A DNA stretch of 64,000 bases from Chloroflexota bacterium. Lineage in GTDB: Bacteria > Chloroflexota > Chloroflexia > Chloroflexales > Herpetosiphonaceae. Under the pieces are notes generated by a model. The model saw only the letters and a list, made by a program, of their open reading frames with translations. It did no database searches and had not been told where the DNA came from. Shown one piece after another: positions 9,701-64,000 of the stretch (within the stretch, counting starts at the first letter, position 1; every line of letters begins with the position of its first letter). The position numbers and the translations under genes are program-made. The stretch is taken from the NCBI GenBank assembly GCA_020161265.1, contig JAIUOC010000003.1, forward strand, positions 107,024-171,023, in the 5' to 3' direction.

Positions 9701-10774
9701 TTAGAACGAACGGGCAATTAAACAAATCCCAACCAAAGCACAAATGAAAAAAATCATCGCGAACAGAAAGAAATATTCAACTGAGCTATCTAGTCCAGTT
9801 TTTTCTTGATAGGTGATCTGTTGGGGCGGCACTTGCGGTTGTAAGATTTGCTGGGCTGATAGTGCAGGCTTGGTCGCTGTCGGCAAGACAATTGTTGCAA
9901 CTGCTGGCCGTTGGACGATTGTTGGTTGGCCGGCGCTGCTCATCAGGCTTGGCTGATTGTAAAAACTTTGTTGCAATTGCTGGATACATTGATCGATACT
10001 GGCTGGCCGTTCATTCGCAGCCAAGGCCATTGCTTGGGCTAAAACTGCTGCCATTGCAGGCGAAACCGCTGGATTTAAATTAACTGGATTGACCAACGGA
10101 TCAGGCTGACCATTAATCAAACTGCTAGCGCGAGTAAGCGCATCGGCTGGCTCGCAATTGGTCAACAAATGATAGAGGGTTGCGGCAAAACTATAGATAT
10201 CGCTGCGCTGATTGACTGGGCTGGTGGCCTGAATTTGCTCTAAGGCAGCGTAAGCCAAGGTATAAGCCACGACACTCTGGTTTGAGGAAGCCCATTGTTT
10301 GGCCAAGCCAAAATCGACCAAGATCAATTGGCCTTCGGGGGTGCGAATAATATTTTGTGGCTTAATATCGCGATGAATGACAGGTGGCGTTTGATGATGC
10401 AAATAGCTGAGCGCTGGAGCCAGTGCCTTGGCCCACGCTAGCACCACATCTGGCTCAAAGGCAGCGCCACGTTGGGCTAGTAGCTGATCAAGATTCTCGC
10501 CCTCGATCAAATCCATGATCAAAAAGGCGGCATCGCCAACCCGCTGCAAATCGTAAACCCGTGGCAATGATGGATGGCGCAAACGAGCCAAAATTTGAGC
10601 TTCACGCTGCAAATTAGTTTGAAACGTGGCATCTTGACCACGAAAATACTTAATTGCGACCTGATGATTAAGCTGTTGATCGAAGGCGGCATAGACCGTG
10701 CCCATACCACCTTGACCAATCAAACGCAAAATTTGATAGCGCCCAAGTAAAACTGAACCAACCCCTAAACTCAT
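9701..10774 (-). CDS. Ser/Thr protein kinase, tail-anchored (C-terminal TM helix)
   Basis: GQGGMGTVY glycine loop, VAIK, HRDIKPQN catalytic loop, DFGLAK, APE-like; Pro/Gln-rich linker then C-terminal hydrophobic helix. Confidence 0.9.
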   Translation of the reverse strand: MSLGVGSVLLGRYQILRLIGQGGMGTVYAAFDQQLNHQVAIKYFRGQDATFQTNLQREAQILARLRHPSLPRVYDLQRVGDAAFLIMDLIEGENLDQLLAQRGAAFEPDVVLAWAKALAPALSYLHHQTPPVIHRDIKPQNIIRTPEGQLILVDFGLAKQWASSNQSVVAYTLAYAALEQIQATSPVNQRSDIYSFAATLYHLLTNCEPADALTRASSLINGQPDPLVNPVNLNPAVSPAMAAVLAQAMALAANERPASIDQCIQQLQQSFYNQPSLMSSAGQPTIVQRPAVATIVLPTATKPALSAQQILQPQVPPQQITYQEKTGLDSSVEYFFLFAMIFFICALVGICLIARSF

Positions 10775-10785
10775 ACGCTCTCCCT

Positions 10786-12030
10786 CTAGAGGATAAAATT
10801 AATTGTCCCTAATAAAATCAATACAATCAAGATAAACACAATATTCATCACTTGGGTGGGGTTCTCAAGCTCCTCGTCATCCAGCATTGCATTCATACGA
10901 CTATTGGCAGCTTGTTGGGTCGTCATCCATTGCGAATTATTGAGTGGGCTAAATGGCTTTGGCTCTTCGCGCTCTTGGTAGAGTTGCTCATAATTAGGCA
11001 TGCTCCATTGAGCGCGATGCATTTGGTCAGCCGCGCTCCAGCGCGAAATCGAGCGGCGTGGGCGCGGTGGAGCAGCTGGAGTTGAAGCTGGAGCCGGACG
11101 TGGCTCGAAGCGCCGTGGCGTAGCATAACTCACCCCATCAGGCAACTGTGAATCAACCCGAATTGTCGGCTGCCCAGCGCTGGTAGCCGCAACCAAGGGC
11201 ACGCTCACCGTTGCTGATTGCGCTGCTTGCAATAAACTGACGACCGCACGAATACTAGCTGGGCGGGCATCAGCCCGTAACGCCAAACTATCCATCAGCA
11301 CCCGATCAAGCGCTGGCGAAACCGCGTTATTCAGGCTGCTTGGCAAGGGCAATGGGTCGGGGTTCGCATAAATTTGCGCACTAGCACGGGTCAAGGCATC
11401 AACTGGCTCGCGATTGGTTAGCAAATGATAGAGCGTTGCGCCAAAGCCGTAGACATCGCTGCGTTGATCCAGTGTGTTTGTGCCCTGAATCTGCTCCAAC
11501 GAAGCATAGGGCAGGGTATAGGCAATCACGCTTTGCTGGCCGGTTGACCATTGTTTGGCTAAACCAAAATCGAGCAAAATCAATTTGCCAGCCGGTGTGC
11601 GCATCACATTATGCGGCTTGATATCGCGGTGAATCACGGGTGGCGTTTGTTGATGCAGGTAGCTCAATGGCTCAGCCAAGGTTGCTGCCCACGCCACCAC
11701 GGTTGCAGGCTCGAAGCCGCTGCCGCGTTGGGTTAGCAATGTGCCCAGGGTTTCACCCTCGATCAAATCCATGATCAAATAGGCATCATCGTTCTCGCGG
11801 CGAATATCATAGACGCGCGGCAAGGCGGGGTGTTGCAACCGCGCTAAAATTTGGGCTTCGCGGTCGAGGCTGGCATGCAAAGCAGGATCGTGATTGCGAA
11901 AGTGTTTAATCGCGACAGGCGTGTTCAATTGGCGATCAAACGCGGCATAGACTGCGCTCATACCGCCTTGGCCGATTGCCCGCACGATGTGATACCGCCC
12001 TAACAATTCGATTCCTGCTTGAAGCAACAT
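10786..12030 (-). CDS. Ser/Thr protein kinase, tail-anchored paralog
   Basis: GQGGMSAVY, VAIK, HRDIKPHN, DFGLAK; Pro-rich linker; C-terminal TM (IVFILIVLILLGTINFIL); about 60% identical to neighbour in the kinase domain. Confidence 0.9.
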   Translation of the reverse strand: MLLQAGIELLGRYHIVRAIGQGGMSAVYAAFDRQLNTPVAIKHFRNHDPALHASLDREAQILARLQHPALPRVYDIRRENDDAYLIMDLIEGETLGTLLTQRGSGFEPATVVAWAATLAEPLSYLHQQTPPVIHRDIKPHNVMRTPAGKLILLDFGLAKQWSTGQQSVIAYTLPYASLEQIQGTNTLDQRSDVYGFGATLYHLLTNREPVDALTRASAQIYANPDPLPLPSSLNNAVSPALDRVLMDSLALRADARPASIRAVVSLLQAAQSATVSVPLVAATSAGQPTIRVDSQLPDGVSYATPRRFEPRPAPASTPAAPPRPRRSISRWSAADQMHRAQWSMPNYEQLYQEREEPKPFSPLNNSQWMTTQQAANSRMNAMLDDEELENPTQVMNIVFILIVLILLGTINFIL

Positions 12031-12032
12031 AC

Positions 12033-13139
12033 CTAACTCACAATCTCACGATAAAGTTCTTCAATCTGATCGAGCATACGCTGCGGGCTGAATGTGCTAC
12101 TCGCGCGTTGACGACCGTTGGCCCCAAATTGCGCCCGCAAGCCTGGATTTTCCAATAGCACAGTGATTGCCCGCGCCAGCGCCGCCGGATCGGCTGGTGG
12201 CACAACAAAACCAGTTTGGCCGTGGGCGTTGACAAAACTTGTGCCAGTGCCCAACTCAGTGCTGACGATTGGAATTCCAGCGGCTAATGCTTCGAGTTGC
12301 ACAATGCCAAATGCTTCTGCTCGTAAATGGGATGGTAGCACAAATACATCGGCAGCGGCATAGTAATTTGGTAAGGCTTGATCCGGGACTTCGCCAGCCC
12401 ATACAATACGTTCGCCAACACCCAAGCGTTGCGCTAAATCGCGCAAACGAGCTTCCTCAGGGCCAATGCCGACCAATACCAATTTGGCATTGGGGATTTT
12501 TGGCAAGGCTTCGAGCAAAAAGTGGAGGCCTTTGTAATGGCGGAAACGCCCAACAAACAACAGTATGGGCGCTGCAACCTGCTCACGCAACGCCTGAATC
12601 GCCGCATGATCTAGTTGATTGAAGCGCTCTGTATCGACGCTCAACGGAATTACGCGACATTTGGCGGCATGGGGAGCCAACCATGGCGAAGTTTGAATAT
12701 ACTGCGGGCTGGCTGCGATAATGCGATCGGCTGCGTTCAGGGTGCGCGTGAGCAAGGGTCGATAGAGTTGCAACAAACGGCGTTGGCGCACAATATCGCT
12801 TTGATAGGTAATCACCAATTTAGCCTTGCCCCGTCGCAGCCAATATAGCAAATCGCCAGGCGGGAAGGGATGGTGCAAATGAATAATATCGGCGGGCACA
12901 CGCCAACTTAATGGCAAACTCATCGGGCTGATCGGAGTTGAGGCCTTGCGCAACCACTGCGCTGCTTTGATGATCGCCACACCATTGCGGCGCTCAATTT
13001 CGGTTTTGGGATAGGTATTGCTGACTGCCACCGTTACTTGATGACCGCGCTCGGCCAAGCCCTCGGCGACAACCCGAATATGATTTTCCATGCCACCAAG
13101 CACTGGAAAATAATCTTTATAGACATGAAGGATGTGCAT
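12033..13139 (-). CDS. GT4-family glycosyltransferase (alternative upstream start at 13190)
   Basis: N-terminal MHILHVYKDYFPVLGGMENH and C-terminal E-x7-E region (EAFGIVQLEALAAG) typical of GT4/GT-B. Confidence 0.85.
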   Translation of the reverse strand: MHILHVYKDYFPVLGGMENHIRVVAEGLAERGHQVTVAVSNTYPKTEIERRNGVAIIKAAQWLRKASTPISPMSLPLSWRVPADIIHLHHPFPPGDLLYWLRRGKAKLVITYQSDIVRQRRLLQLYRPLLTRTLNAADRIIAASPQYIQTSPWLAPHAAKCRVIPLSVDTERFNQLDHAAIQALREQVAAPILLFVGRFRHYKGLHFLLEALPKIPNAKLVLVGIGPEEARLRDLAQRLGVGERIVWAGEVPDQALPNYYAAADVFVLPSHLRAEAFGIVQLEALAAGIPIVSTELGTGTSFVNAHGQTGFVVPPADPAALARAITVLLENPGLRAQFGANGRQRASSTFSPQRMLDQIEELYREIVS

Positions 13140-13195
13140 TGCTCGTGTGATACTCGCGCTCAAAGAATTGCTGTGAGTATTATAGAACATTGTTG

Positions 13196-13438
13196 TTGGG
13201 GATTGGGGCTCGGTTGTTGGGGATCGGGAACGTTGTAGAGCAAAAAACAGAGGTTAGAGTTCAGGGGCTAGGGGGCCGCCCATATGCTACGAAACCTTCG
13301 TGCGCTTCGTGATCTTCGTGGATCAAGCTTTAACGCAGAGGCGCAGAGGATGAATGGCTATAGGCTGAGGGTTATTCGTTCTTGATATTCCAATCAATGT
13401 CCGATAGCCCATAGCCTATAGCCTGATTACCTTAGGTG
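13196..13438. repeat. Mosaic palindromic intergenic repeat element, copy A
   Basis: Contains GGGGATTGGGG, GGGGATCGGG, CAGGGGCTAGGGGG, CTTCGTGCGCTTCGTGATCTTCGTGGATC, TAACGCAGAGGCGCAGAGG, ATAGCCCATAGCCTATAGCC words shared with copies B-H. Confidence 0.85.
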
Positions 13439-14158
13439 CTATTCAGGGATGATAAATTCTTGGCCGACGTGAATTACATCGGGGTTGGGGATGCGGTCGC
13501 GATTGGCTTGATAAATTCGCTTCCACTGCATTTCATCGCCATAAAAGCGTTGGGCAATTGCTCGCATGGTGTCGCCAGATCGCACGGTGTAGGTTCGTTG
13601 GGCTGGCAATGGTGTGCTTGCATCGGGAATCACAAATTCTTGGCCAACGCTAATCACATCGGGGTTGTTGCCGATGATCGCCCGATTGGCTTCGTAAATT
13701 CGTCGCCATTGGGCAGCATCGCCATAGAAGCGGGCTGAAATTTTGCCCAAGGTATCGCCACCTTGAACCGTGTAGCGCTGTTCAGTAGCCTTGGCTTCTT
13801 CAGCTTTGGCAGCCTCGGCTTTAGCGGCTTCTTGGGCTTTGGCAGCTTCTTGCGCTTGACGCAGCGCATCAGCCACCGCATTGTTGGTTGCAGCAGACTG
13901 AGCTTCGGCCTTTTCACGAGCTTCTTTGGCTGCTTCTTGAGCATCTTTGATCACATTTACTGCATTGGAGACTGATGATGAGGCCGCTTCTTCCTGCTTC
14001 TCTTGAATATCGTGCAAGCGCTCCATCATTTGGCCAATCACGTTACCAGGGGCTGGACTAGTGGGCTTGGCTTCGGCACTTTCGCGGCTTTGCTCAATTG
14101 CATCCTTCATTTGATCAGCCAAATTACCAAACAAACCCTTCTTTTCCTTGTCGGCCAT
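13439..14158 (-). CDS. LysM-domain protein: Ala/Glu/Lys-rich coiled-coil N-region plus two C-terminal LysM domains; no signal peptide
   Basis: Two LysM repeats (YTVQGGDTLGKISARFYGD...; YTVRSGDTMRAIAQRFYGD...); N-terminus lacks a hydrophobic signal. Confidence 0.8.
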   Translation of the reverse strand: MADKEKKGLFGNLADQMKDAIEQSRESAEAKPTSPAPGNVIGQMMERLHDIQEKQEEAASSSVSNAVNVIKDAQEAAKEAREKAEAQSAATNNAVADALRQAQEAAKAQEAAKAEAAKAEEAKATEQRYTVQGGDTLGKISARFYGDAAQWRRIYEANRAIIGNNPDVISVGQEFVIPDASTPLPAQRTYTVRSGDTMRAIAQRFYGDEMQWKRIYQANRDRIPNPDVIHVGQEFIIPE

Positions 14159-16924: not shown

Positions 16925-16967
16925 GAGTACGACCTCCTAGTAATCATGAATTATACCATTTTGATCG

Positions 16968-17192
16968 AGGGGTCAGGGGCTAGGGGTCAGGGGCTAGGGA
17001 TCAGGGGTCAGGTTTTGATCCACGAAGGGCACGAAGAGCACAAAGGGCTGTTTTTAGCCACGGATTAACCCAGATTTTGGATGTTGATTATATTTTGTGT
17101 GCTTTGTTCTTCGATTTCCTTAATTCTTGGCCTCTTCGTGGACTCCTCAGTTTCAAACTGGCCCCTGAATCCTAGCCCCTGACCCCTCTATT
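16968..17192. repeat. Mosaic palindromic intergenic repeat element, copy B
   Basis: Outer arms GGGGTCAGGGGCTAGGGGTCAGGGGCTAGGG ... CCTAGCCCCTGACCCC; inner pair GATCCACGAAGGGCACGAAGAG ... CTCTTCGTGGA; includes TTTTTAGCCACGGATTAACC. Confidence 0.85.
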
Positions 17193-18287
17193 TTAAAAAA
17201 CCATGCCGCTTGGTCGTACTAAGCTGCGATCGATGCTGGCTAGATTGGGGCGGCCACATAGCGCCATCGAGCGTTGTAATTCGCGCTGCATGGTCGTTAG
17301 CACATCGGCAACCCCAGCACTACCCGCCACTGCCAAGCCCCATAAGACTGGTCGCCCAAGCATAATTGCCTGTGCTCCTAAAGCCAAGGCTTTAAGCGCA
17401 TCGCTGCCACGGCGAATCCCGCCATCGATATAAATTTCGCACGGGCTTTGCGCCAATGCCGCGACAACCTCGGGCAAGGCTTCAAGCGTGGTAACCGTAC
17501 CATCAATTTGGCGGCCACCATGATTTGACACCACGATCGCTGCCGCGCCTGCCTCAGCAGCCAACAGCGCATCCTCAGCGGTCAAAATACCCTTGACGAT
17601 GATGGGCAAGCTAGTCACCGAGCGCAACCAAGCGATCGATTCCCAAGTCAAGCCAGCATCAAACATATCGGCTTTGGGGTCGGGCAAGGCATTCGGGCCA
17701 GCACGGCGATAATTTTGGGCGGCAGGCACATCGCGAAAATTGGCCATACTCAGATGGGCGGGTACACCAAAACCACTGCGCAACTCACGTTCACGCCGCC
17801 CAAGCCACGGACGATCAATCGTTAACATCAAGGCTTGATAGCCAGCAACTTCGGCGCGAGCAATCAAACGCTCCGACACACTGCGATCACGATAGACATA
17901 CAATTGAAACCAGAGCGGGCATTCGGCGGCAGCCGCAACTTCTTCCAACGAGCGGGTGGCGAGGGTGCTTACGGTGAAAATTGAGCCAGCTTGAGCCACG
18001 CCTCGCGCAGTTTCACATTCGCCCTCAGCATGGGCCAAGCCATGGTAGGCCGATGGTGCAACCAAAATTGGCGAATTAAGCGGCTTGCCCAGCAAAGTTG
18101 TGGCGGTTGAGACTTCACGCACATCAACCAAAAATCGTGGTCGCAAACGTACCTGCTCAAATGAAAGCAGATTCGCCCGCAAAGTCACTTCATCCTCGCA
18201 GCCACCTGCATAATAATCGCAGGTTGGGCCATCCAACAGCGTCATTGCCTGTTGCTCATACTCGTGGAGATTAATCGGCTTGCTCAT
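17193..18287 (-). CDS. FMN-dependent alpha-hydroxy-acid dehydrogenase/oxidase (L-lactate dehydrogenase / glycolate oxidase family)
   Basis: TIM-barrel FMN motifs incl. SNHGGRQ(I)DG and GGIRRG; 364 aa. Confidence 0.85.
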   Translation of the reverse strand: MSKPINLHEYEQQAMTLLDGPTCDYYAGGCEDEVTLRANLLSFEQVRLRPRFLVDVREVSTATTLLGKPLNSPILVAPSAYHGLAHAEGECETARGVAQAGSIFTVSTLATRSLEEVAAAAECPLWFQLYVYRDRSVSERLIARAEVAGYQALMLTIDRPWLGRRERELRSGFGVPAHLSMANFRDVPAAQNYRRAGPNALPDPKADMFDAGLTWESIAWLRSVTSLPIIVKGILTAEDALLAAEAGAAAIVVSNHGGRQIDGTVTTLEALPEVVAALAQSPCEIYIDGGIRRGSDALKALALGAQAIMLGRPVLWGLAVAGSAGVADVLTTMQRELQRSMALCGRPNLASIDRSLVRPSGMVF

Positions 18288-30235: not shown

Positions 30236-31039
30236 TTATTCGATGATCGTTCCATGGCCCGCAAGGGCATCGCTAATTGGTTGGTCACGGCGGCCATCGC
30301 CAATGATGACGCGGCGCACACCACCTTCGAGCGCAGTTTGCGCCCCTAGCAATTTTTTCTTCATGCGGCCTTGCGCTAGTTTTTCGGTCGCTTGGGCTAA
30401 TTCGGTGCGTGGTAAGCGACCAATCAAACTGCTTTCGTCGGGAAAGTTGCGATACAAGCCGCTGACATTGGTCAATAGCAAGAGTGTTTCGGCTTCTAGA
30501 GCTACAGCTACACTGGCCGCACCGCGATCCCCATCAATATTTAATGGTTCGCCCACGTTGCTTACCGCCAATGGAGCAATGACTGGTAGATAGCCTGCGC
30601 TCAGCAAGGTTTGCAACAAACCCTGATTAACCTGATCGATGCTGCCAGTCCAATCATCGCGAATCACTCGCACCCGACCGTTTTCAACCGCCCGAACATT
30701 GGTTTTGCGCGTACCTTGCAATAAGCCGCCGTCGATGCCCGATAAGCCTAAGGCGTTGACTCCCAAACCGCGCAAACGCTCAACAAATTGGCGATTAAGC
30801 AAGGCTGTCGCCATCATAAAAATTTCGAGCGTGCGCCGATCGGTTTGGCGGCTGGTGTGGCCTGATGGCGAGGTAATGAAGCGCGGCGGATGTCCAAGTT
30901 GCTCGCCAAGCGTGTTCGCTCCATCCGAGCCACCATGAAACAGCACAATTGGTTGGCCTTGGGCGGCAAGTCGGGCAATATCAGCGCAGAGATTGCTATA
31001 ATCAATCCCCGCTGCCCCGCCAATTTTTATTACAAGCAT
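30236..31039 (-). CDS. lysZ: [LysW]-aminoadipate kinase / acetylglutamate kinase family (ORF track extends to 31123 into the repeat)
   Basis: MLVIKIGGAA amino-acid-kinase N-terminus; AAK fold; cluster context. Confidence 0.85.
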   Translation of the reverse strand: MLVIKIGGAAGIDYSNLCADIARLAAQGQPIVLFHGGSDGANTLGEQLGHPPRFITSPSGHTSRQTDRRTLEIFMMATALLNRQFVERLRGLGVNALGLSGIDGGLLQGTRKTNVRAVENGRVRVIRDDWTGSIDQVNQGLLQTLLSAGYLPVIAPLAVSNVGEPLNIDGDRGAASVAVALEAETLLLLTNVSGLYRNFPDESSLIGRLPRTELAQATEKLAQGRMKKKLLGAQTALEGGVRRVIIGDGRRDQPISDALAGHGTIIE

Positions 31040-31043
31040 GTGT

Positions 31044-31315
31044 ATGATCCTTATTTGATCCACGAAGCACACGAAGAATAGGAACCGCGAAGAATATGAA
31101 GAGCGCCAAGGCTGAAACCACAAAGAACGCGAAGGGCGCTAAGAACTTCAAGCTCAATGTGTATAGCATATCCTTTCATCCCTCATCATTCATATTTTTG
31201 AATCTCTGCGCCTCTGCGTTAAACAATTGATCCACAAAAAGCACAAAGGTTGTGTAGTTTGTGGCCTGACCCCCAACCCCTAGCCCCTGACCCCTATGCT
31301 CTATGTTCTATGTTC
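31044..31315. repeat. Mosaic palindromic intergenic repeat element, copy C (between lysZ and lysY)
   Basis: GATCCACGAAGCACACGAAG, CGCGAAG x3, CATCCCTCATCATTCAT, CTCTGCGCCTCTGCGTTAAA, CCTGACCCCCAACCCCTAGCCCCTGACCCC, CTATGCTCTATGTTCTATGTTCT abutting the lysY stop codon. Confidence 0.85.
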
Positions 31316-32350
31316 TTAAACTGGGTGCAAGCCTGTAAACTCCAGCCCCAAGCGTTCATCGAAGCCATACATCAAATTTAAGCATTGGATGGCGGCTCCG
31401 GCTGCGCCCTTCATCAAGTTATCGAGGGCACACAGCGCCACTACGCGGCCAGTCGCTTCATCGAGTGCCCAACCAATATCGGCGTAATTGCTGCCTGCCA
31501 AGATTTTTGGCTCTGGATGGCGGTGCAAGCCACTACGATCATGGACAATGCGCAGAAACGGTTGTTCAGCAGCGGCAGCGCGATAGGCTCGCCACAGATC
31601 ACGTTCGTTGACCGAGCCTTGAGTAAACACATGGCAGGTTGCCAAAGCGCCACGCACCATTTCCACCGATGTGATCGAAATATGCACATTTTCAAGGCCA
31701 TGGGCTTGCATAATTTCGGCGGTGTGGCGATGACCAACTGGGGCAAACGAGCGCACCACGCCTGAGCGTTCGGCATGATGGCTGCCATCGTTGGCAACCG
31801 CGCCCGCCTCAGACGAACCAACCTTGACTTCAGCCACTACCGGCTTGGTTTGATCGATCAAGCCTGCCTTGACCAACGGCAACAAGGCCAAGTTAATCGC
31901 TGTTGCATTGCAGCCTACGCCGCTAACATAGCGAGTTGAACGAATTTGCTCACGATACAATTCAGGTAAACCATAAACAAAACGCTCCAGCCATTGCGGG
32001 GCAGGGTGGGGTTCGCCATACCAACGGCTATAGGCTTCGGGGTCGCGCAAACGAAAATCAGCTGAACAATCGATTAATGCTTGACCAAGGCCAGCGTAAT
32101 GCTCGATCTTTTTGGCGGCTGAGCCATGCGGCAAGGCCAAAATCAACACATCACAAGGCTCCAACGTGCTTTGCGGGCTATACCGCAAATCGGTGCGACC
32201 ACGCAAATTGGGGTGGGTGCTGTAGACATATTGGCCTGCTAAGCGTTCGCTGGTGACCTGACGCACCTCGACGTGGGGATGCCCCAACAATAAACGCAGC
32301 AATTCACCACCGACATAGCCCGAGCCACCAACTATCGAAACTGAAAGCAT
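31316..32350 (-). CDS. lysY: [LysW]-aminoadipyl-phosphate reductase / N-acetyl-gamma-glutamyl-phosphate reductase family
   Basis: N-terminal Rossmann GGSGYVGGELLRLL and catalytic Cys region (SGVGCNATA); 344 aa. Confidence 0.88.
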   Translation of the reverse strand: MLSVSIVGGSGYVGGELLRLLLGHPHVEVRQVTSERLAGQYVYSTHPNLRGRTDLRYSPQSTLEPCDVLILALPHGSAAKKIEHYAGLGQALIDCSADFRLRDPEAYSRWYGEPHPAPQWLERFVYGLPELYREQIRSTRYVSGVGCNATAINLALLPLVKAGLIDQTKPVVAEVKVGSSEAGAVANDGSHHAERSGVVRSFAPVGHRHTAEIMQAHGLENVHISITSVEMVRGALATCHVFTQGSVNERDLWRAYRAAAAEQPFLRIVHDRSGLHRHPEPKILAGSNYADIGWALDEATGRVVALCALDNLMKGAAGAAIQCLNLMYGFDERLGLEFTGLHPV

Positions 32351-33424: not shown

Positions 33425-33427
33425 TGT

Positions 33428-33759
33428 TTGTAATCCTTTATTAGTTAGGGGTCGGGGGCTAGGGGCTGGGGATCGGTATCCCGTCCTGTGCCAACCACCT
33501 GTTGCCAAACCCACTAATTCTTAACAAACCTTACCTTCGTGATCTTCGCGTCCTTCGCGGTTTCAAGGGTAGGGGTCGGGGGCTAGGGGCTGGGGATCGG
33601 TATCCCGTGCAGTGCCACCTGCCTATGTTCAACCCGTTACATTCCGATAGCCAAAAGCCTTATAGCCTTACTCTCTGCGCCTCTGCGTTAAAACTTCCTG
33701 ACCCCTGATCTCTGACCCCTGAACCCTCGCCCCTTCGTGTCCTTCGTGCTCTTCGTGGA
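33428..33759. repeat. Mosaic palindromic intergenic repeat element, copy D, with internal ~45-bp direct duplication
   Basis: TAGGGGTCGGGGGCTAGGGGCTGGGGATCGGTATCCCGT present twice (about 33437-33485 and 33570-33615); also CTTCGTGATCTTCGCG, CCTTATAGCC, CTCTGCGCCTCTGCGTTAAA, CTGACCCCTGA, CTTCGTGCTCTTCGTGGATC. Confidence 0.85.
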
Positions 33760-34755
33760 TCAAAATTGGTCAATTACTGCTTGCACCACCTCAGCCGTTG
33801 TTGCCGTTCCACCAAGATCGGGCGTGTATGGCCCATTGGCTAATACCGCCTGAATTGCGGTTTGCAAGCGTTCGGCGTAGCTGTTCAAGCCCACAAATTC
33901 GAGCATCAACACGCTAGCGCTCAAGGTTGCCAACGGATTGGCGATGCCTTGGCCAGCAATGTCGGGAGCACTGCCATGCACAGGCTCGAATACCGCCGTG
34001 CGAGTGCCATAGTTGGCCGATGCTGCCAAACCAAGCCCGCCACCCCACACGCTGGCGACATCCGAGAGAATATCGCCAAACAAATTGGTGGTGACTAACA
34101 CTTCAAAACGTTCCGGAGCACGGGCCAATTGATAAGCAGCGTTATCGACCAACATTTCTTCAACCTGCAAATCAGGCGCGTCAGCTAGCACGCGCAGCGC
34201 GGTTTCGCGGAACAAACCACAAGTTTCGCGCAGCACATTGGCTTTGTGTACTACGGTGATTTTGCGGCGGCCAGTGCGTTGGGCATATTGCACCGCCCAT
34301 TGCACAATCCGCTCGCTGGCTTGGCGGGTGATAATTCGTTGCGCCGTGGCGCGTTCATCGCCCTCGCGGGTTTCTTGGCCGCTATACAAACCCTCGGTAT
34401 TTTCGCGCACCACTACCAAATTGACTCCAGCACGGGCATTCGCCAGTGGTGGCGTTTGAACTGGCCGCACACAGGCATACAAATCAAGGGCTTTGCGCAT
34501 GCCAACAATTGGGCTGCGATAGCCAGCGACCCGCTGTGATGGCGAGCTAACTGCACCAAACAAGGTGGCGTTGGCCGCTTGAACCGCTGCTAAAGTTTGT
34601 TCGGGCAAGGCGTTGCCAGTTTGTTGAAAGGTTTCCCAACCAGCTTCGGCTTCGACAAACTCGGCAGGAACCGCCAAGGCTTCGAGCACTTGCCGCGCTG
34701 CTTGCACGACTTCGCGGCCAATCCCATCGCCAGCAATCAAACACAACCTCGTCAT
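33760..34755 (-). CDS. Homoisocitrate / 3-isopropylmalate dehydrogenase family (beta-decarboxylating dehydrogenase)
   Basis: NLFGDILSD and metal/substrate motifs of the IDH/IPMDH family; 331 aa; AAA-cluster context favours homoisocitrate dehydrogenase. Confidence 0.88.
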   Translation of the reverse strand: MTRLCLIAGDGIGREVVQAARQVLEALAVPAEFVEAEAGWETFQQTGNALPEQTLAAVQAANATLFGAVSSPSQRVAGYRSPIVGMRKALDLYACVRPVQTPPLANARAGVNLVVVRENTEGLYSGQETREGDERATAQRIITRQASERIVQWAVQYAQRTGRRKITVVHKANVLRETCGLFRETALRVLADAPDLQVEEMLVDNAAYQLARAPERFEVLVTTNLFGDILSDVASVWGGGLGLAASANYGTRTAVFEPVHGSAPDIAGQGIANPLATLSASVLMLEFVGLNSYAERLQTAIQAVLANGPYTPDLGGTATTAEVVQAVIDQF

Positions 34756-37779: not shown

Positions 37780-37911
37780 GAAAGCACAATCCTTCCGCAA
37801 GAACATCCGGTGAACAATTCAGGGCGAACAGCCGCAGGGCGGTGGATATGGCTGATGCGTTTAAGTTGCTTGAGTATGGCCATGGAAAAATCCTTTCAAA
37901 CCGACGTTGGA

Positions 37912-37942
37912 TACAAAAAAACTCGCCGTTTGGTGCGGCGAG
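37912..37942 (-). terminator. Intrinsic terminator (putative attenuator) in the 5' leader of the homocitrate-synthase gene
   Basis: Minus strand: CTCGCCGCACCAAACGGCGAG followed by TTTTTTT; about 135 nt upstream of the start codon. Confidence 0.6.
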
Positions 37943-37974
37943 CCTTGGTGTTTATTGAGCGCGTGAAGTGTTGT

Positions 37975-38061
37975 TTAGACGCGACGCAATAACCCAGACT
38001 CGCTGCCTGGCTTCTTTGCGCTACGTTTTTTCGAGTTCAGGTACAATTGTTGACTGAACAT
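37975..38061 (-). CDS. Candidate leader peptide (28 aa, MFSQQLYLNSKKRSAKKPGSESGLLRRV) with two Lys-Lys pairs, preceding the attenuator
   Basis: Minus-strand ORF with GGAG about 10 nt upstream; AAA AAA and AAG AAG lysine codon pairs; stop ~33 nt before terminator hairpin. Confidence 0.35.
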   Translation of the reverse strand: MFSQQLYLNSKKRSAKKPGSESGLLRRV

Positions 38062-38100
38062 AGTAACAAACTCCACAAACCATCAAAAGTTCTGTCGCGA

Positions 38101-38129
38101 AGCATAGCAGGCAGGTTTGAGTTTGTCAA
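38101..38129 (-). promoter_or_regulatory. Sigma70-like promoter for the lysine-cluster leader
   Basis: Minus strand TTGACA - 17 nt - TATGCT. Confidence 0.5.
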
Positions 38130-38140
38130 GTGACGATTTT

Positions 38141-38345
38141 TGGGCATCGGGGATCGGTTGTTGGGGGTCGGGGGTCAGGGATTTTTAAACGCCAAGGACA
38201 TGAAGGAGAATAAGGCTATAGGCTTTTGGCTATCGGAAATTGGTTGAAATTATCAAAAGCCTATAGCCTATAGCCAAATCTTCCGATCCCCGCCCCCCAA
38301 CAACCGATCCCTAGCCCCCGACCCCTAGCCCCTTATGTTCTATGC
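38141..38345. repeat. Mosaic palindromic intergenic repeat element, copy E (near-perfect long inverted repeat)
   Basis: CATCGGGGATCGGTTGTTGGGGGTCGGGGGTCAGGG ... CCGATCCCCGCCCCCCAACAACCGATCCCTAGCCCCCGACCCC; inner GGCTATAGGCTTTTGGCTATCGG ... CCTATAGCCTATAGCC; terminal TTATGTTCTATGCTCTATGTTCT encodes the last codons and stop of the downstream GT gene. Confidence 0.9.
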
Positions 38346-39469
38346 TCTATGTTCTGGATAATTGCCTCGCGCATAGCCGAACCAACCGCTTCCCAGCGAT
38401 AACGTGCCGCAATTTCGACACTGCGTGCGCCAAAACGCCGACAGCGCTCAGGATCGCCGACCAATTTGATCAAGACGGTCGCCAGCTGATCAACCGTGCC
38501 TGGCTCAACCAAATAGCCATTGCGATCGTGCTCGATAAAATCGGGCATGGCTCCAAGGTTGGTTGAAACCACAGGCAGCCAATAATTCATGGCCTCAATC
38601 GTGACGATGCCAAATGGCTCAAGTTTGGTGGGCATACAAAAGACTGCGGCGCGTTGATAATACTGCGGCAATTGCTCAACCGGAATCCGCCCGATGACCT
38701 CAACTCCTGGCTGGTTGGTTTGTGGGTTTGCGCCGATGATCGTCAGGGTAGCGTTGGGATAAACCGCCCGTACTTGGGCGAAGGCTTGCAGCAATTCAGG
38801 GCCGCCTTTACGCTCCCAATCTATCCCAACATAGACAATATTTTGGCTGGCATAGCGGGCTGGATCAGGCGTTTCGCTGATGACCGGAGCATTGCTACCA
38901 GCGTAAACACAACGTACTTTGGCTGGGTCACAATGGTAATCTTCGACCAATGAACGTGAAACATGATTGGAACGTGTAAAGACTAAATTGGCATTTTGAT
39001 AAATAGTTGGCTCTAACTTCATCCATTCGGGGTGATAGAGCGAGGCCGGATTAAAGCCTGGATATTGACGATTTGCCAGCAAGGTATGGTCGGTATAGAC
39101 AAAATGGGGGATATTTGGCACGCTAGCATCAAATAATGATTGCATCTGAAAACTGAATAGATAGTCGTCATCGCGCAGTAAATCGGCAACTAAATGCTTG
39201 ACAGCACGAAAAATATAGCTGGTGATCAAAAAGGCATCTTTGGGGCCACGCCGCCGCATCGCCAAATCGCCAGCATATTGGCGTAATGTCCACCAGCCGT
39301 TTAATGCAACCAGTGCAGGCTTGCGCCGAATGATGGGAATTAAATCGATCTCACGGAGTTCATTTTCAGGGAATTGAGCACGCAGCGCTTCGGCGGTTCG
39401 CACATTCGCCAACGGCCAGCGCCCCTTACGAATAAAAGCAATTTTGGGAGCCACACGCACCTCCAGCAC
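38333..39469 (-). CDS. GT4-family glycosyltransferase
   Basis: GT-B C-terminal domain with E-x7-E (EPFGIVTIEAM); 378 aa. Confidence 0.8.
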   Translation of the reverse strand: MLEVRVAPKIAFIRKGRWPLANVRTAEALRAQFPENELREIDLIPIIRRKPALVALNGWWTLRQYAGDLAMRRRGPKDAFLITSYIFRAVKHLVADLLRDDDYLFSFQMQSLFDASVPNIPHFVYTDHTLLANRQYPGFNPASLYHPEWMKLEPTIYQNANLVFTRSNHVSRSLVEDYHCDPAKVRCVYAGSNAPVISETPDPARYASQNIVYVGIDWERKGGPELLQAFAQVRAVYPNATLTIIGANPQTNQPGVEVIGRIPVEQLPQYYQRAAVFCMPTKLEPFGIVTIEAMNYWLPVVSTNLGAMPDFIEHDRNGYLVEPGTVDQLATVLIKLVGDPERCRRFGARSVEIAARYRWEAVGSAMREAIIQNIEHRT

Positions 39470-39536: not shown

Positions 39537-40565
39537 CTATTGATTTGGATTAATCACGGTTACATTATAGGTGAAGGAGCGGGTTTGCGAATTGACCACA
39601 ACATTGCTGATTGTGATGGTATAAGTTGTATCGGCGCTTGGCTGCGCCCAACTTGAGCTATGGTTGTAGCCTTGGGGAATCCAAACGATCGTATTTTCGC
39701 CCATATTAAAAGCAACTGTCTCTTTGGTAACCGGAATCGTGGTGTTGCCTTGGCGCATCGTAACAGTTGCATTCGTAAAGTTGCCATTATGCAACGAGAA
39801 TGACCAACGCCCAAAGACCACTTGGTAGGGTACGAAACCTTCGGGTGGCCATGGCACATATTCGGTGCGGGTGGCAGGTCTGGCCGTGCCAAAATCACTG
39901 GTGATCACGTAGAGTGCATTTGAGCCAGCATAGCCGCTACGGCTGGGTACATCGCCAGTCCCAATAGATTTATTTTGCGGGTATAGAATCCAGCGGCGGT
40001 GGCCAGCGGCACTATTGCCAGCCCCAGGATCAAGCATATAGCCCGTAATTGCACCTGGCCCAATTTGACCCAAATAGAGATTCGATTTGCCAGCGGCGGT
40101 TTTGCCAGCGGCGGTGTAGCACGCCCATGACGTTGGCGGGCTATGGCTCAGGCTATTGTTGCGGCTCATCATCAAGGCCGCTTGTTGGGCTTGGCTATTG
40201 TAGCTCTCGTTGAGGGTGACTGCGGCCATGCCCGCCATTTTACGAAAATAATTAACTCGCAACAGAATTGCATCGCGATAGGCTTGACTGGTTGTGCCAG
40301 CGTTACAACTGGCTTGGCTGCCAGTCCAGCCATCGGTCACGCCTTCGCTTGGCAAGTAGAAATTGGTATAGAAATTGACCACCGATTGGCGGTTATTGAT
40401 ATCAAGTTCAGGGTTCGACATCACAGCAGGCAGATAATTCATGCTGCCGCCAGCGATAGCTTGGGGTTCTTGGGCTGCAAGTGGGGCCACCAAGCCAAAT
40501 ACCAACAAACTTGTTACAACCAAACTGATCCAGCGGCTGCGCCGCCAAGGAGATGCCACCTGCAT
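39537..40565 (-). CDS. Secreted CAP/SCP/PR-1-like domain protein with C-terminal beta-rich domain (paralog 1)
   Basis: Signal peptide; CAP-like block (RVNYFRKMAGM...AQQAALMMSRNNSLSHSPP...GHRRWILYP). Confidence 0.7.
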   Translation of the reverse strand: MQVASPWRRSRWISLVVTSLLVFGLVAPLAAQEPQAIAGGSMNYLPAVMSNPELDINNRQSVVNFYTNFYLPSEGVTDGWTGSQASCNAGTTSQAYRDAILLRVNYFRKMAGMAAVTLNESYNSQAQQAALMMSRNNSLSHSPPTSWACYTAAGKTAAGKSNLYLGQIGPGAITGYMLDPGAGNSAAGHRRWILYPQNKSIGTGDVPSRSGYAGSNALYVITSDFGTARPATRTEYVPWPPEGFVPYQVVFGRWSFSLHNGNFTNATVTMRQGNTTIPVTKETVAFNMGENTIVWIPQGYNHSSSWAQPSADTTYTITISNVVVNSQTRSFTYNVTVINPNQ

Positions 40566-40640
40566 ACCATGCCTCCAGTGTAGTGAATTAATTAATGAAT
40601 TTTGACAAACATTTGGCAATTTGGCTATAGCCCATCCGCC

Positions 40641-41651
40641 CTAGCGACTTGGGTCAATCACGGTGACCTGATAGCTGAACGAACGAGTTTGGCCATTCTG
40701 CACCACATTACTCACATTCACAGTATAGGTGATATCGGTGGCAGGTGCTGGCCATGTAACGTAGCCTGTAACATCCCAAACAATTGTATTATCGCCGCTG
40801 CCACTGCTGCGCGAGACGATTGTCAGGGCTTGCGGTTGTCCACTCTTTTGCATCGTCACCACGGCATTGGCAAAATTGGCGTTGGGTAAGCTAAACGACC
40901 AACGTTTGTAGGCATTCATAAAAGGTACAAAGCCCGCTGGCGGCCAAGCAACATATTCGGTGCGGGTGGCAGGGCGTGGGCCAGTGTTGCCAACCACCCA
41001 CAAACTATTGGCATCGAGCGTGCCAGTTTGGGCTTTGACATCGCCTGTACCCATTTTGAGCGTCGGTGGATACAACAACCAACGTCGATGCCCAACGCTG
41101 GGCGTGTTGTCATCGGACATATATAAGCCAATCGCGCCAGTGCCATTGGCGGTTACCCCAGCCGCCAAATTCGATTTACCAGCGGCTTCTTTACCTTCAG
41201 CGGTATAGCAAAGCCAATTGCTGGGCGGATTATGATTGAGCGTGCGGTTGCGACTCATCATCAAGGCTGCTTGCTGAGCCTTCGCATTCAAAGCCGGATC
41301 AAACGTAACCGTGCCCATGCCAGCCATGCGCCGAAAATAGTTAATGCGGGCTAAAACTGTATCGCGGAAAGCTTGGGTGGTTGTGCCAGGCGTGCATGTG
41401 CTGGCATTGCCCGTCCAGCCAATATCGACTGCCATCGAGGTGAGATAATAATTTTGGTAAAAGTTCACCACCGATTGGCGATTGTGAATATCCAAATCGG
41501 CGTTAAACATAATGGCTGGTAGATAATTGGTGCTGCCGCCAGCCAAGGCCTGAGGTTCTTGGCCTGCTACTGAGCCAACCAAACAAAAAATCAGGGCGCT
41601 GACAATTAACCAGCGCCGTTTAGGCCGTAGCCAATACTGAATAACCTGCAT
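40641..41651 (-). CDS. Secreted CAP/SCP/PR-1-like domain protein (paralog 2)
   Basis: Signal peptide; RINYFRRMAGM...AQQAALMMSRNRTLNHNPP...GHRRWLLYP; colinear with upstream paralog. Confidence 0.7.
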   Translation of the reverse strand: MQVIQYWLRPKRRWLIVSALIFCLVGSVAGQEPQALAGGSTNYLPAIMFNADLDIHNRQSVVNFYQNYYLTSMAVDIGWTGNASTCTPGTTTQAFRDTVLARINYFRRMAGMGTVTFDPALNAKAQQAALMMSRNRTLNHNPPSNWLCYTAEGKEAAGKSNLAAGVTANGTGAIGLYMSDDNTPSVGHRRWLLYPPTLKMGTGDVKAQTGTLDANSLWVVGNTGPRPATRTEYVAWPPAGFVPFMNAYKRWSFSLPNANFANAVVTMQKSGQPQALTIVSRSSGSGDNTIVWDVTGYVTWPAPATDITYTVNVSNVVQNGQTRSFSYQVTVIDPSR

Positions 41652-41919
41652 ACACACTCCAAAAATACGCAACAATGATGCAGGGGTACTATCGCAGCCC
41701 TAGCCCAAATAGACCATAGCCCATTAGCCCTAATTTTTTACCTGTGATTAATGAAATCGAGCCATAAAAAATGCTTATACCAGTATGTCAGCCATATGTT
41801 GCCATTGCTGTTGGAATTAGTAATCGTAGATATAGTTGAACAAATGTTCTGATAATGCTATAGTAACGATCATTAATTCGAAGGTTAGTTCACATGAAAA
41901 GTATTGAGGAGCAGCAATT

Positions 41920-47120: not shown

Positions 47121-47345
47121 GCTTGAGGATCGGGGATTGGGCAACTGATCCCCTTTTTAATCCACGAAGCGCACGAAGTTAAGTTTTTAGCCACGAATTG
47201 CACGAATTCCACCAATTATCCTCGCCAGACCCATGGCCCAATGCCAACGATTCAGCTCCGATCCCCAACCCCTATGTTCTTTGCTCTATGTTATATGTTC
47301 TCAACTTCATCCCTCATCCTTCATGTTAACCATCTCTTACACAAA
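47120..47345. repeat. Mosaic intergenic repeat element, copy F
   Basis: GATCGGGGATTGGG, CCACGAAGCGCACGAAG, TTTTTAGCCACGAATTGCACGAATTCC, CCGATCCCCAACCCCTATGTTCTTTGCTCTATGTTATATGTTCT, CATCCCTCATCCTTCAT. Confidence 0.85.
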
Positions 47346-60695: not shown

Positions 60696-60837
60696 AGTTC
60701 ATCCTTGGGGTCGAAATTGTACATCGACCCATACTGGTTGTTATCAAATCGTCATCCACAATGCGGATCATTTCGCTGATAATACCATAAGCTTTTGTGC
60801 TTAGTGTAATTGCGCAATTAAAAGGAGTTGATTGAGA

Positions 60838-61553: not shown

Positions 61554-61559
61554 CGGCAC

Positions 61560-61870
61560 ATCCTAGCGTTAAGTTAATAACTTAATCCTGCCAAAGGGCC
61601 AAAACCGCGAAAGGCACGCAGTTATTTTTGCCACGAATTGCACGAATGACACGAATGATCATTATTTTAGCCACAGATTGACACAGATGTTGATGGTTGT
61701 GGTACTGTTCCCACCGTGCATCACTCCATTTCTGCTGCCCATACTGACCCCTGAATCCTAGCCCTGCTATTTTGCCTTTTGTCTTATGCATTTTGATATT
61801 CATCCTTCATCCTTCATCCTTCATCCTTTCAGATTATAATAGGCCTATCGTCCCGCACTTTGTTTTGGGA
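61560..61870. repeat. Mosaic intergenic repeat element, copy G
   Basis: AACCGCGAAAGGCACG, TTTTTGCCACGAATTGCACGAATGACACGAATGA, TTTTAGCCACAGATTGACACAGATG, CTGACCCCTGAATCCTAGCCC, CATCCTTCATCCTTCATCCTTCATCC. Confidence 0.8.
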
Positions 61871-61878
61871 GGCTTAAG

Positions 61879-63570: not shown

Positions 63571-63589
63571 GGTAGCTCCTTTGCTTGGT

Positions 63590-63765
63590 TGATAATTTAA
63601 ATAGAGGGCTGAAACCGCGAAGAACGCGAAGAGCGCGAAGTTAAGTTTTTAGCCACAGCTTTGCTTGATTATGCTCTTATGCTTATTCCCTGATCCCTAG
63701 CCCCTGACCACTGACCCCTACTTCCTATGCTCTATGTTCTTTGCTCTATGTTCTCAATAACGGTT
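63590..63765. repeat. Mosaic intergenic repeat element, copy H
   Basis: AACCGCGAAGAACGCGAAGAGCGCGAAG, TTTTTAGCCACAGCTTTG, CCTGATCCCTAGCCCCTGACCACTGACCCC, CTATGCTCTATGTTCTTTGCTCTATGTTCT supplying the last codons and TAG stop of the upstream gene. Confidence 0.85.
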
Positions 63766-64000
63766 GAGTCGCCTCGATGCAGGCGCGATACAAACTGGCA
63801 ATATCCGGGGCATTGGCATCTAAGGCTTGGAGATGGCGCTCGACCGTGCCATAATCGCCACGAGCCAATGGGCCAGTTAATGCTTGGGGCAGGCCGACGC
63901 GAGCCAAATTTTCAACGTTATCGCGCAATAAAGGCACGAGTGCTTGTAATGCTTCTTGGCCTGACCAACCACAAAGTTGCAATAAATCGACTGCTCGGGC
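63746..64000 (-). CDS. C-terminal part of a Rossmann/DUF2520-like oxidoreductase (possible PanG-type ketopantoate reductase); 5' end beyond window
   Basis: C-terminal LTGPLARGD motif of DUF2520/ProC-like C-domain; adjacent to panB. Confidence 0.45.
   Translation of the reverse strand, partial: ARAVDLLQLCGWSGQEALQALVPLLRDNVENLARVGLPQALTGPLARGDYGTVERHLQALDANAPDIASLYRACIEATQPLLRT

Follow-up and report, generated by a model that had tools for sequence, protein, structure and literature searches.

Filamentous cyanobacteria carry STRR (short tandemly repeated repetitive) elements, heptamers reportedly described by Mazel and coworkers in 1990. STRR1, STRR2 and STRR3, found in heterocystous cyanobacteria, have as their units CCCCAGT, TTGGTCA and CAACAGT, respectively. 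The small dispersed repeats (SDR) of Nostoc punctiforme, as Elhai and coworkers are said to have reported in 2008, are 21 to 27 nt long, non-coding, nested, tied to heptamer repeats, and present or absent at orthologous sites. The present study concerns similar sequences in another phylum: eight intergenic spacers within a 64,000-nt stretch of Chloroflexota DNA (GenBank assembly GCA_020161265.1, contig JAIUOC010000003.1, positions 107,024 to 171,023), henceforth called the window, are filled with mosaics of short repeated words.

More is known of three systems to which these mosaics may be compared. STRR lie as 7-bp tandem repeats in intergenic and intercistronic spacers, such as that between hupS and hupL, and are capable of forming hairpins; their function is unknown, and the roles proposed for them are transcript stability or translational coupling, the hupS-hupL hairpins in particular having been proposed to stabilise transcripts (PMC2670836). 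Chloroflexus aurantiacus contains scattered (GATAGRA)n heptamer satellites (family Fam_1_14_23), read as transposed non-coding satellite by a survey whose satellite finder had a minimum period of 10 nt and whose data set lay outside Herpetosiphon (Subirana and Messeguer 2019, PMC6749651). Repetitive extragenic palindromic (REP) units are imperfect palindromes of 20 to 40 nt, with a GTAG or CGTC head, linked to the RAYT (REP-associated tyrosine) transposases (PMC3733652, PMC3116915).

The family described here is real, STRR- and SDR-like in its units and, in its architecture, like the bacterial interspersed mosaic elements (BIMEs), and I found no description of it for the Herpetosiphon lineage. 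As with STRR, tandem heptamers (here of four kinds, called G7, M7, H7 and Y7) are dispersed at many non-coding loci, inverted arrays form hairpins, and one unit is of the C4N3/G4N3 type, CCCCTGA here as against CCCCAGT for STRR1. The differences are the phylum, the units (CCCCTGA/CCCTAGC, CTATGYT, TTCATCC and CCTATAG, as against those of STRR1 to STRR3), and the interleaving of the heptamers, in recurrent order, with capped arrays of fixed length, called K9 (9-nt units) and R8 (8-nt units), which the definition of STRR does not include. The likeness to SDR is one of form and lies in the K9 triple, which is 25 nt long, never exceeds three units, is dispersed, and is interleaved with heptamer arrays; K9 and R8 differ from SDR in being internally tandem, with three or two cores, and in that their mobility is putative. 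The satellite of Chloroflexus comes from the same phylum, with a unit similar to that of M7 on the opposite strand (CATAGAR), but it has a single unit type, and no multi-word mosaic was reported.

An earlier reading of the window, made from its letters and referred to below as the original prediction, had likened the elements to BIMEs and REP. The comparison stands with respect to architecture: like the BIMEs and REP of enterobacteria and the REPINs of Pseudomonas, the mosaics are extragenic, high-copy assemblies of motifs in both orientations, placed 3' of genes or between cistrons, and they avoid divergent promoter spacers. It does not stand with respect to the unit, since the units here are direct tandem repeats of 7 to 9 nt whose palindromy is incidental, and the spacers contain no recurrent stem-loop with a GTAG or CGTC head (the module ends being T-rich caps TTA(A/G)C, GATC or GAAAC). 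No RAYT (Y1 transposase) was found among the window genes scanned with Pfam. STRR, SDR and the Chloroflexus heptamers are closer precedents, because the blocks are direct tandem repeats and form hairpins only where arrays of opposite polarity adjoin; for the capped K9 and R8 arrays, SDR come nearest.

Mosaic arrays in long co-directional spacers of Herpetosiphon

All nine words quoted in the original prediction occur where it had placed them or directly beside. The word CACGAAGNNCACGAAG, with up to two mismatches, has 16 matches in the window against 0.34 expected, and GGGGTCAGGGGCTAGG, with up to three, has 14 against 0.15. When the lexicon was expressed as seven regular-expression word classes and compared with shuffled sequence, the window gave 35 matches and the shuffles 0.62. 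Intergenic DNA, 10% of the window, holds 32 of the 35, and at least two of the three "coding" matches sit at doubtful ends of open reading frames (ORFs). The 7-mers contained in the words are enriched approximately 10- to 226-fold in intergenic over coding DNA. An unbiased search of the whole window for repeats recovered the mosaic blocks, 30 to 52 nt long and present in 3 to 6 copies, as the main dispersed families, besides paralogous genes and one coding 69-nt tandem repeat. The elements are thus, as predicted, a dispersed, intergenic, composite-word family with a lexicon of its own.

No common termini, and no terminal inverted repeats with target duplications, bound the eight mosaics in the manner of an insertion sequence (IS) or a miniature inverted-repeat transposable element. 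The Rfam 15 covariance models gave no match at the gathering score and, with the limit at E up to 1, none that lay in the spacers; tRNA and tmRNA were likewise not found. BLASTN of spacer 2 (spacers are numbered as in Table 1) and of a K9 hairpin against 72,556 plasmids returned nothing, or only chance-level matches in Bacillus TnpB genes. A literature search for the literal words and for repeats of Herpetosiphon or Chloroflexi found no description of these repeats.

The words resolve, by Tandem Repeats Finder, into short tandem arrays of two kinds. The first consists of heptamers in variable copy number, 2 to 6 units: G7 (GGGGTCA/GGGGCTA and variants, C-rich on the other strand as CCCCTGA/CCCTAGC), M7 (CTATGYT), H7 (TTCATCC) and Y7 (CCTATAG). 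The second consists of length-capped arrays of 8- to 9-nt units, in each of which a 7-nt core is conserved and a spacer of 1 to 2 nt varies. These are K9, with the unit (CRCGAAK-NN) and a 25-nt triple, and R8, (CTCTGCG-N)x2, which reads CTCTGCG-C-CTCTGCG followed by TTAAA. In Herpetosiphon, K9 has three units in 32 of 45 arrays and more than three in none. K9 and R8 arrays bear T-rich caps (TTGATC, TTTAATC, GAAAC, TTAAGTTTTTAGC), with the pattern ...TTA(A/G)C or GATC.

The conservation of the core may be judged from the middle unit of K9, read in copies anchored on the first and third cores (n=19, partly orthologous copies, Herpetosiphon). Its core is fixed at five of seven positions; A or G stands at position 2, and occasional differences occur at position 4. 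The two positions of the spacers next to the middle core differ, by contrast, in 42% and 74% of cases. This test, in Herpetosiphon, is the unbiased one; per-position entropy anchored on the core and the corresponding test of R8 are biased by selection.

The modules follow a local syntax. A K9 array is followed by TTAAGTTTTTAGCCAC in four of four cases in the window, C-rich G7 by M7, and H7 by R8 (CTCTGCGCCTCTGCGTTAAA) and then by C-rich G7. The claim that each copy has its own order and orientation was therefore overstated. Whole blocks recur in non-orthologous spacers: a 52-nt block running from G7 to M7 in five copies (69-79% identity), a 47-nt block from K9 to its cap in three, and a G7+K9 block of about 73 nt that is inverted between two spacers (16975-17047 and 33697-33765, 87-89% identity).

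A Pfam scan showed one full-length rpoC in the window, besides dnaK, htpG and a lysine cluster of the LysW (alpha-aminoadipate) type. In a scan of species-representative genomes, its LysY-like protein (31316-32350, minus strand) proved 98% identical in amino acids to that of Herpetosiphon aurantiacus DSM 785 (CP000875.1, 4.16 Mb), and orthologous loci were found also in H. llansteffanensis, H. giganteus, H. sp. NSE202, H. geysericola and one related metagenome-assembled genome. The window is accordingly chromosomal DNA of a Herpetosiphon species near DSM 785 yet not identical to it. The six Herpetosiphon-clade loci (L001 to L006; L001 is DSM 785 and L003 H. giganteus) served as the comparison set. 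All six contain the words, at 3.3 to 21 lexicon matches per 10 kb, as compared with 0.15 per 10 kb outside the clade (1.1 Mb from 74 other taxa), and the M7 and H7 arrays are essentially specific to Herpetosiphon. The lack of enrichment outside the window, which the original prediction had named as its refutation, was thus not seen. The mosaics are therefore genus-wide non-coding elements of the Herpetosiphon chromosome, filling its long co-directional spacers.

All eight mosaics lie between co-directional genes, as the original prediction had it. Amongst spacers of at least 130 bp, words occur in 8 of 10 that are co-directional, 0 of 6 that are divergent and 0 of 3 that are convergent (Fisher p about 6e-4 for co-directional placement, my own arithmetic on those counts), and no convergent spacer of any length (0 of 6) carries a mosaic. 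The first array begins within 16 nt of the upstream stop codon in seven of the eight spacers, and the mosaics usually reach almost to the next gene. GAACATAGAACATAG directly follows the TAA of lysY, and the TGA of the homoisocitrate dehydrogenase gene lies inside the K9 cap TTGATCC. Three spacers carry the composite in sense orientation with respect to transcription, and four carry it in antisense.

Two side observations bear on placement. M7, H7 and the S cap (TTTTAGCCAC) are on the plus strand of the window in 12 of 12 matches and 6 of 7 informative loci, regardless of gene strand. This uniformity may represent a polarity with respect to replication; the window itself has a flat GC skew. Second, mechanical ORF calls enter the arrays. 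A TTG start at 31123 places K9 arrays inside "LysZ" (30236-31123), and a CTATGYT array provides the GT4 gene at 38333-39469 with its stop and last codons. Annotation pipelines may place gene ends wrongly where such elements occur.

Folding and turnover of the spacers

The original prediction held that the words often form long nested hairpins. Folding z-scores of the eight spacers, relative to dinucleotide shuffles, bear this out for two of them: spacer 2 (16936-17192; z of -7.2 and -8.8 on the two strands) and spacer 5 (38141-38345; z of -6.7 for 38141-38332), in both of which a repeat finder confirmed nested inverted repeats. The z-scores of the other six lie between -2.0 and +1.75: spacer 1 (13191-13438) has a local hairpin only, and the remaining five fold no better than the shuffles, spacer 4 (33427-33759) having no inverted repeat at all by the repeat finder and a z of about 0. 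It takes two neighbouring arrays that happen to be of opposite polarity to make a hairpin, a situation present in two to three of the eight spacers. Because orientation is mixed and only two of the eight spacers have z-scores below -6, neither a strand-specific RNA motif nor an obligatory hairpin is likely. The hairpin as a defining feature is ruled out by these scores, by the unconserved folding of orthologous spacers (below), and by the small number of K9 triples with an inverted partner.

Intrinsic terminators were considered and rejected, the number of terminator-like sequences found by a consensus scan being that expected from shuffles; only 47132-47158 fits, and the clearest terminator of the window (37946-37918) falls outside the mosaics. 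Canonical G-quadruplex motifs are more frequent than expected, six in the window as against 1.5. Five of them lie in G7 arrays, on either strand relative to the genes, and (GGGGTCAGGGGCTA)x3 is a candidate G-quadruplex sequence.

Alignment of the flanking genes between species gives 82-96% identity and breaks off at the spacers. In the lysY spacer the order M7, G7, R8, H7, K9 is retained, with different numbers of units, by five of six relatives, but in DSM 785, the closest relative, the mosaic is wholly replaced by a different palindromic element. The spacer between the homoisocitrate dehydrogenase gene and lysW (spacer 4) starts with TGA-TCCACGAAG in all species. Blocks are duplicated there in the window (a block of 124 nt) and in three others, and sub-elements have been exchanged between species. 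DSM 785 has in this spacer an extra capped K9 triple, flanked by two existing triples, that the window lacks, a difference that unequal exchange also explains. In the third orthologous spacer, spacer 5 of the window, module content varies by species and folding z ranges from -6.6 to +1.5. The comparison of these three spacers argues that repeats have long been accumulating there and turn over fast, and that the hairpin potential is not conserved.

The element that replaces the lysY mosaic of DSM 785 (L001 11050-11160) belongs to a second palindromic family, CCCTCACCCCC...CCCCTCGCCC-loop-GGGCGAGGGG...GGGGGTGAGGG, seen in other Herpetosiphon species and present also, in L001 to L005, in the orthologues of window spacers 33427-33759 and 38141-38332. 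The window lacks its core words, CCCCTCGCC and GGCGAGGGG. Another element, of about 170 bp, lies inside a G7 array of H. giganteus (approximately 11095-11270 of L003), with the terminal inverted repeats CCTTTCAAGGGTAG / CTACCCTTGAAAGG; pieces of it occur also in L004 and L006. A related word, CTACCCTTGAAAC, at window 33558-33575, caps a K9 triple, a hint that some of the caps come from the termini of inverted-repeat elements like this one.

Two plasmids of H. aurantiacus DSM 785 provide a further comparison. In 200 kb (pHAU01 1-150000 and pHAU02 1-50000) there is no lexicon match, where about 110 would be expected at the density of the window. The plasmids have a higher G+C content (0.53-0.56), many long spacers, and many IS and integrase genes. 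Their want of words fits a spread that requires pre-existing homologous words.

Arrays beyond the genus and the proposed origin of the mosaics

The lexicon is not confined to this organism: the words of K9 and R8 occur elsewhere. In three genomes of Anaerolineae (L011, L033 and L012), CACGAAG or CACAAAG arrays directly follow the stop codon of lysY. In L017, CACGGAT arrays begin at stop codons, and upstream of lysW lies an inverted pair, CGCAGAG / CTCTGCG. A Vicinamibacterales genome (Acidobacteriota) contains (CACAGAG-A)x3 with a GTAGC cap and inverted partners, and loci from Acidobacteriota, Caldilineaceae and Pirellulales contain inverted heptamer or octamer arrays of the same kind made of other words.

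Exact scans extend this range. The K9 triple CACGAAGNNCACGAAGNNCACGAAG was found in at least 120 stretches of virus-like contigs, with up to six copies per stretch among the matches listed; by my estimate its 21 specified bases would give less than one match by chance. Among the matches listed, a few are coding His-Glu-Glu repeats in phages of low G+C, and intergenic triples capped by tCAC or TTAAC make up the majority; a full inverted partner accompanies 22 of 132 triples. One virus-like contig repeats the syntax of the window, K9 and then TTTTTAGCCACGGATTAACACGGAT. The R8 word CTCTGCGCCKCTGCGTTAAA was found in at least 120 metagenome stretches, with G+C from 0.32 to 0.69 among the matches listed. 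There it is the end of an octamer array of two to four units, often with an inverted partner TTAACGCAGAG..., and such arrays adjoin others of the same form with the cores CTTTGCG, TTCTACAYG, ATCCGTG and AATCCTGTC. Orientation of K9 and R8 relative to genes is unusable in the environmental contigs, since the stop-to-stop ORF caller put about half of them inside spurious ORFs of high G+C. What is shown to extend beyond the Chloroflexota is the kind of array; for the exact words such a spread is conjectural.

Small genes or fragments with the motif GxGLLExxY (PDDEXK_3-like) lie 85 to 376 nt from CTCTGCG...TTAAA arrays at five of the 120 metagenome loci listed (L123, L125, L151, L185 and L193), and one directly follows a K9-type array in Anaerolineae L033; there is none in the window. 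An association of the arrays with such genes (GxxExxY) was rejected, seeing that it concerns only five to six of the 120 metagenome loci listed and none in Herpetosiphon.

I lean, tentatively, towards regarding the mosaics as non-autonomous repeat DNA kept by recombination and slippage, with hairpins as a by-product. They would then be the Chloroflexota counterpart of cyanobacterial STRR and SDR and, architecturally, of enterobacterial BIMEs. Blocks of several modules would be copied and shuffled among spacers by ectopic recombination or gene conversion, seeded by common words, and arrays would lengthen, shorten and duplicate by slippage and unequal exchange. Selection would tolerate the mosaics only in 3' or intercistronic spacers and would exclude them from divergent promoter regions and from genes. 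Adjacent arrays of opposite polarity would make long hairpins, which may terminate or stabilise transcripts as a by-product. This account is suggested by the multi-module blocks shared between spacers, the partly kept order with variable unit numbers, the block duplications, an orientation that is random with respect to genes, and plasmids that have neither words nor the seeds for them.

If so, STRR-like mosaic spacers are not peculiar to filamentous cyanobacteria but exist also in filamentous Chloroflexota, where they fill most of the long co-directional spacers near housekeeping genes (lysine cluster, dnaK, panB). The mosaics are useful as strain-typing markers and as annotation landmarks, indicating non-coding DNA and overlong starts and ends of ORFs, and they are a warning for assembly and primer design.

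Several considerations weigh against recombination and slippage as the whole account. They leave unexplained the limit of three units in K9, exceeded in none of 45 Herpetosiphon arrays, the fixity of five of seven core positions beside spacers that differ in 42-74% of cases, and the identical cores in Anaerolineae and in hundreds of unrelated contigs. These three features point to recognition by a factor or to a dedicated copying mechanism, and because of them the two rivals considered next are kept alive. The plasmids may be without words simply as recent arrivals. No recombination event was directly observed in the window or the comparison loci, and the sequence base consists of the 64-kb window and about 110 kb of related sequence, the six comparison loci spanning the same three spacers.

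The first rival, rather unlikely in my estimation, is that the capped arrays of about 25 to 30 nt (the K9 triple, R8+TTAAA, and the TTTTTAGC+CACGAAT triple) are ultra-small mobile elements, which would move as do the SDR of Nostoc, inserting into one another and into heptamer arrays by means of a putative trans-acting enzyme or RNA intermediate. Their discrete size, sharp limit of three units and conserved caps are what one would expect of such elements, as are the capped triple present or absent at spacer 4 and the module content of spacer 5 that varies among species. K9, moreover, occurs in at least 120 virus-like stretches, in as many as six copies per stretch among those listed, and the occurrence of R8 in at least 120 metagenome stretches over so wide a range of G+C is most easily explained by horizontal spread. 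On the other hand, no target-site duplication and no pair of sites with an empty counterpart and clean boundaries was found, the one clear indel sits between two existing triples, where unequal exchange suffices, the resident plasmids contain no copy in 200 kb despite their long spacers and IS elements, and Pfam scans found no candidate transposase in the window.

A second rival, which I consider less probable still, supposes that the conserved 7-nt cores, 8 to 9 nt apart and mostly in threes, are putative DNA or RNA sites in cis for a conserved multimeric factor of the host or a phage, candidates being a nucleoid protein, an RNA-binding protein or an RNase, with the heptamers as filler or as formers of G-quadruplexes. 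The invariance of the core in the unbiased middle-unit test, beside spacers that are variable (purine-biased but diverse), speaks for it, as does the fixed number of units. The cores of the different arrays constitute one degenerate family, CRCRRAK (CACGAAG, CGCAGAG, CACGAAT, CACGGAT, CACAGAT), and the form of three units plus a cap recurs with CACAGAG cores in the Vicinamibacterales genome. That most virus-like triples are single arms is also in its favour, as is the concentration of G-quadruplex motifs in G7 arrays. However, no such factor is known, orientation is random relative to Herpetosiphon genes, the modules are freely gained and lost beside housekeeping genes, unlike essential regulatory sites, and several unrelated words would require several factors.

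The reading of the original prediction, that these are REP- or BIME-like hairpins whose function is to fold either in DNA or in transcripts, where they would serve as terminators, RNase III sites or stabilisers of 3' ends, is the weakest and quite improbable: it draws on the position of the mosaics directly 3' of genes within a probable operon (the lysine cluster), on the two strongly folding, nested spacers, on the resemblance of 47132-47158 to an intrinsic terminator and on the transcript-stabilising role proposed for the hupS-hupL STRR hairpins (PMC2670836), but most copies do not fold, the folding of spacer 5 is not conserved, the units are direct repeats and not palindromes, and the convergent spacers, where 3'-end elements would be expected, carry no mosaics. 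Integron attC sites (RYYYAAC...GTTRRRY) and IS5-type TTAA/TTAG target duplications, considered for the TTAAC/GTTAA caps, were dropped, because most K9 caps are tCAC or GATC, the neighbours are housekeeping genes, and the window has no integrase.

A wider proposal is speculative and somewhat doubtful: that the capped arrays (CACGAAG-NN)x3 and (CTCTGCG-N)x2-4+TTAAA, with their CRCRRAK relatives, represent a widespread, unnamed class of 25- to 30-nt elements found in Chloroflexota (Herpetosiphon and Anaerolineae), in Acidobacteriota-like genomes and in many phage-like contigs. Their cores would be kept alike by a conserved trans-acting machine that recognises or copies them, which could be a multimer that binds RNA or DNA or else a system of ultra-small mobile elements, and the mosaics of Herpetosiphon would be their local accumulation inside heptamer arrays. 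Fixed three-unit arrays in hundreds of unrelated environmental and virus-like contigs would mean that they are copied across lineages or read by something conserved.

Layout of the eight spacers and other features of the window

The modules of each spacer are collected in Table 1.

Table 1. Positions in the window of the modules that make up the eight mosaic spacers. Signs in parentheses give the strands of genes.
Spacer	Feature	Position	Strand	Remarks
1	Whole spacer	13191..13438		Between LysM gene 13439-14158(-) and GT4 gene 12033-13190(-)
1	GTTGTTGGGGATYGGG x2	13192-13228
1	G-rich heptamers	13257-13276
1	K9 triple CACGAAG-NN x3 + GGATCAA cap	13296-13320	-
1	R8 CTCTGCGCCTCTGCGTTAAA	13329-13348	-
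1	CCTATAG-type inverted repeat	13356-13423		Local hairpin (repeat finder)
2	Whole spacer	16936..17192		Abuts stop codon of FMN dehydrogenase gene 17193-18287(-); single long hairpin, outer arms 34 nt, 88% complementary
2	(AGGGGTC/AGGGGCT) x6	16968-17012
2	TTTTGATC cap + K9 triple	17013-17045
2	TTTTTAGCCACGGATTAACCCAGAT	17050-17080		Followed by degenerate inverted K9
2	C-rich heptamers	17158-17191
3	Whole spacer	31054..31316		lysY 31316-32350(-) to lysZ
3	K9 arrays	31061-31076		Degenerate copies 31083-31143
3	TTCATCC heptamers	31175-31196
3	R8	31204-31223
3	GATC + CACAAAG array	31226-31249
3	C-rich heptamers	31265-31294
3	CTATGYT heptamers	31294-31316		Begin at lysY TAA stop
4	Whole spacer	33427..33759		Homoisocitrate dehydrogenase 33760-34755(-) to lysW
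4	K9 triple	33733-33757		Cap TTGATCC includes TGA stop codon
4	C-rich heptamers	33697-33727
4	R8	33673-33692
4	ATAGCC words	33646-33670
4	66-nt block, twice, 124 nt apart	33446-33511 / 33570-33635		Each with GGGGTCGGGGGCTAGGGGCTGGGG
4	Second K9 triple	33535-33559
5	Whole spacer	38141..38355		3' of GT4 gene 38333-39469(-); nested hairpin
5	Outer arms, G-rich / C-rich heptamers	38150-38176 / 38285-38311		93% complementary
5	Inner arms GGCTATAGG / CCTATAGCC	38205-38241 / 38248-38284
5	CTATGYT heptamers	38334-38355		Overlap GT4 gene end
6	Whole spacer	47121..47330		Hybrid histidine kinase 45042-47120(+) to dnaK 47376(+)
6	Terminator-like mini-hairpin GGGGATTGGGCAACTGATCCCC + T5	47132-47158
6	K9 x2	47163-47178
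6	TTAAGTTTTTAGC cap	47179-47191
6	CACGAAT-NN x3	47192-47217
6	CCGATCCCCAACCCC	47262-47275
6	CTATGYT x4	47272-47301
6	TTCATCC x3	47306-47327
7	Whole spacer	61554..61878		Between gene 60828-61553(+) and HAD hydrolase gene 61879(+)
7	Degenerate K9	61603-61620
7	TTTTTGC cap + CACGAAT-NN x3	61625-61656
7	TTTTAGC + CACAGAT x2	61665-61690
7	CTGACCCCTGAATCCTAGCCC	61744-61766
7	TTCATCC x4.3	61799-61828
8	Whole spacer	63571..63764		Between panB 62704-63570(-) and gene running off window end (63765-64000, -)
8	GAAAC cap + CGCGAAG-NN x3	63610-63640
8	TTAAGTTTTTAGCCAC	63641-63656
8	C-rich heptamers	63683-63720
8	CTATGYT x4	63725-63754

The region 37807-38140 (minus strand) contains a promoter-like TTGACA-17-TATGCT (38129-38101) and then a 33-codon ORF, MEFVTMFSQQLYLNSKKRSAKKPGSESGLLRRV (38076-37975), with four Lys codons. 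An intrinsic-terminator-like hairpin with a T7 run, at the position given above for the clearest terminator, follows this ORF, just upstream of the homocitrate synthase gene. The region had no Rfam match. From this arrangement, it may be a lysine leader-peptide attenuator of the LysW-type lysine cluster.

The coding tandem repeat encountered in the whole-window search lies at 54513-54750 (69-nt unit x3.4, 94% identity), inside an ORF (54492-54977, minus strand) that has no Pfam match, and bears no relation to the words of the intergenic lexicon. The window's longest direct repeats come from two pairs of neighbouring paralogous genes, at 9701-12030 and 39537-41675, which have segments of 50 to 300 nt in common at 71-82% identity; the segments concerned are 10125-10424 with 11381-11680, and 39829-40504 with 40924-41593.

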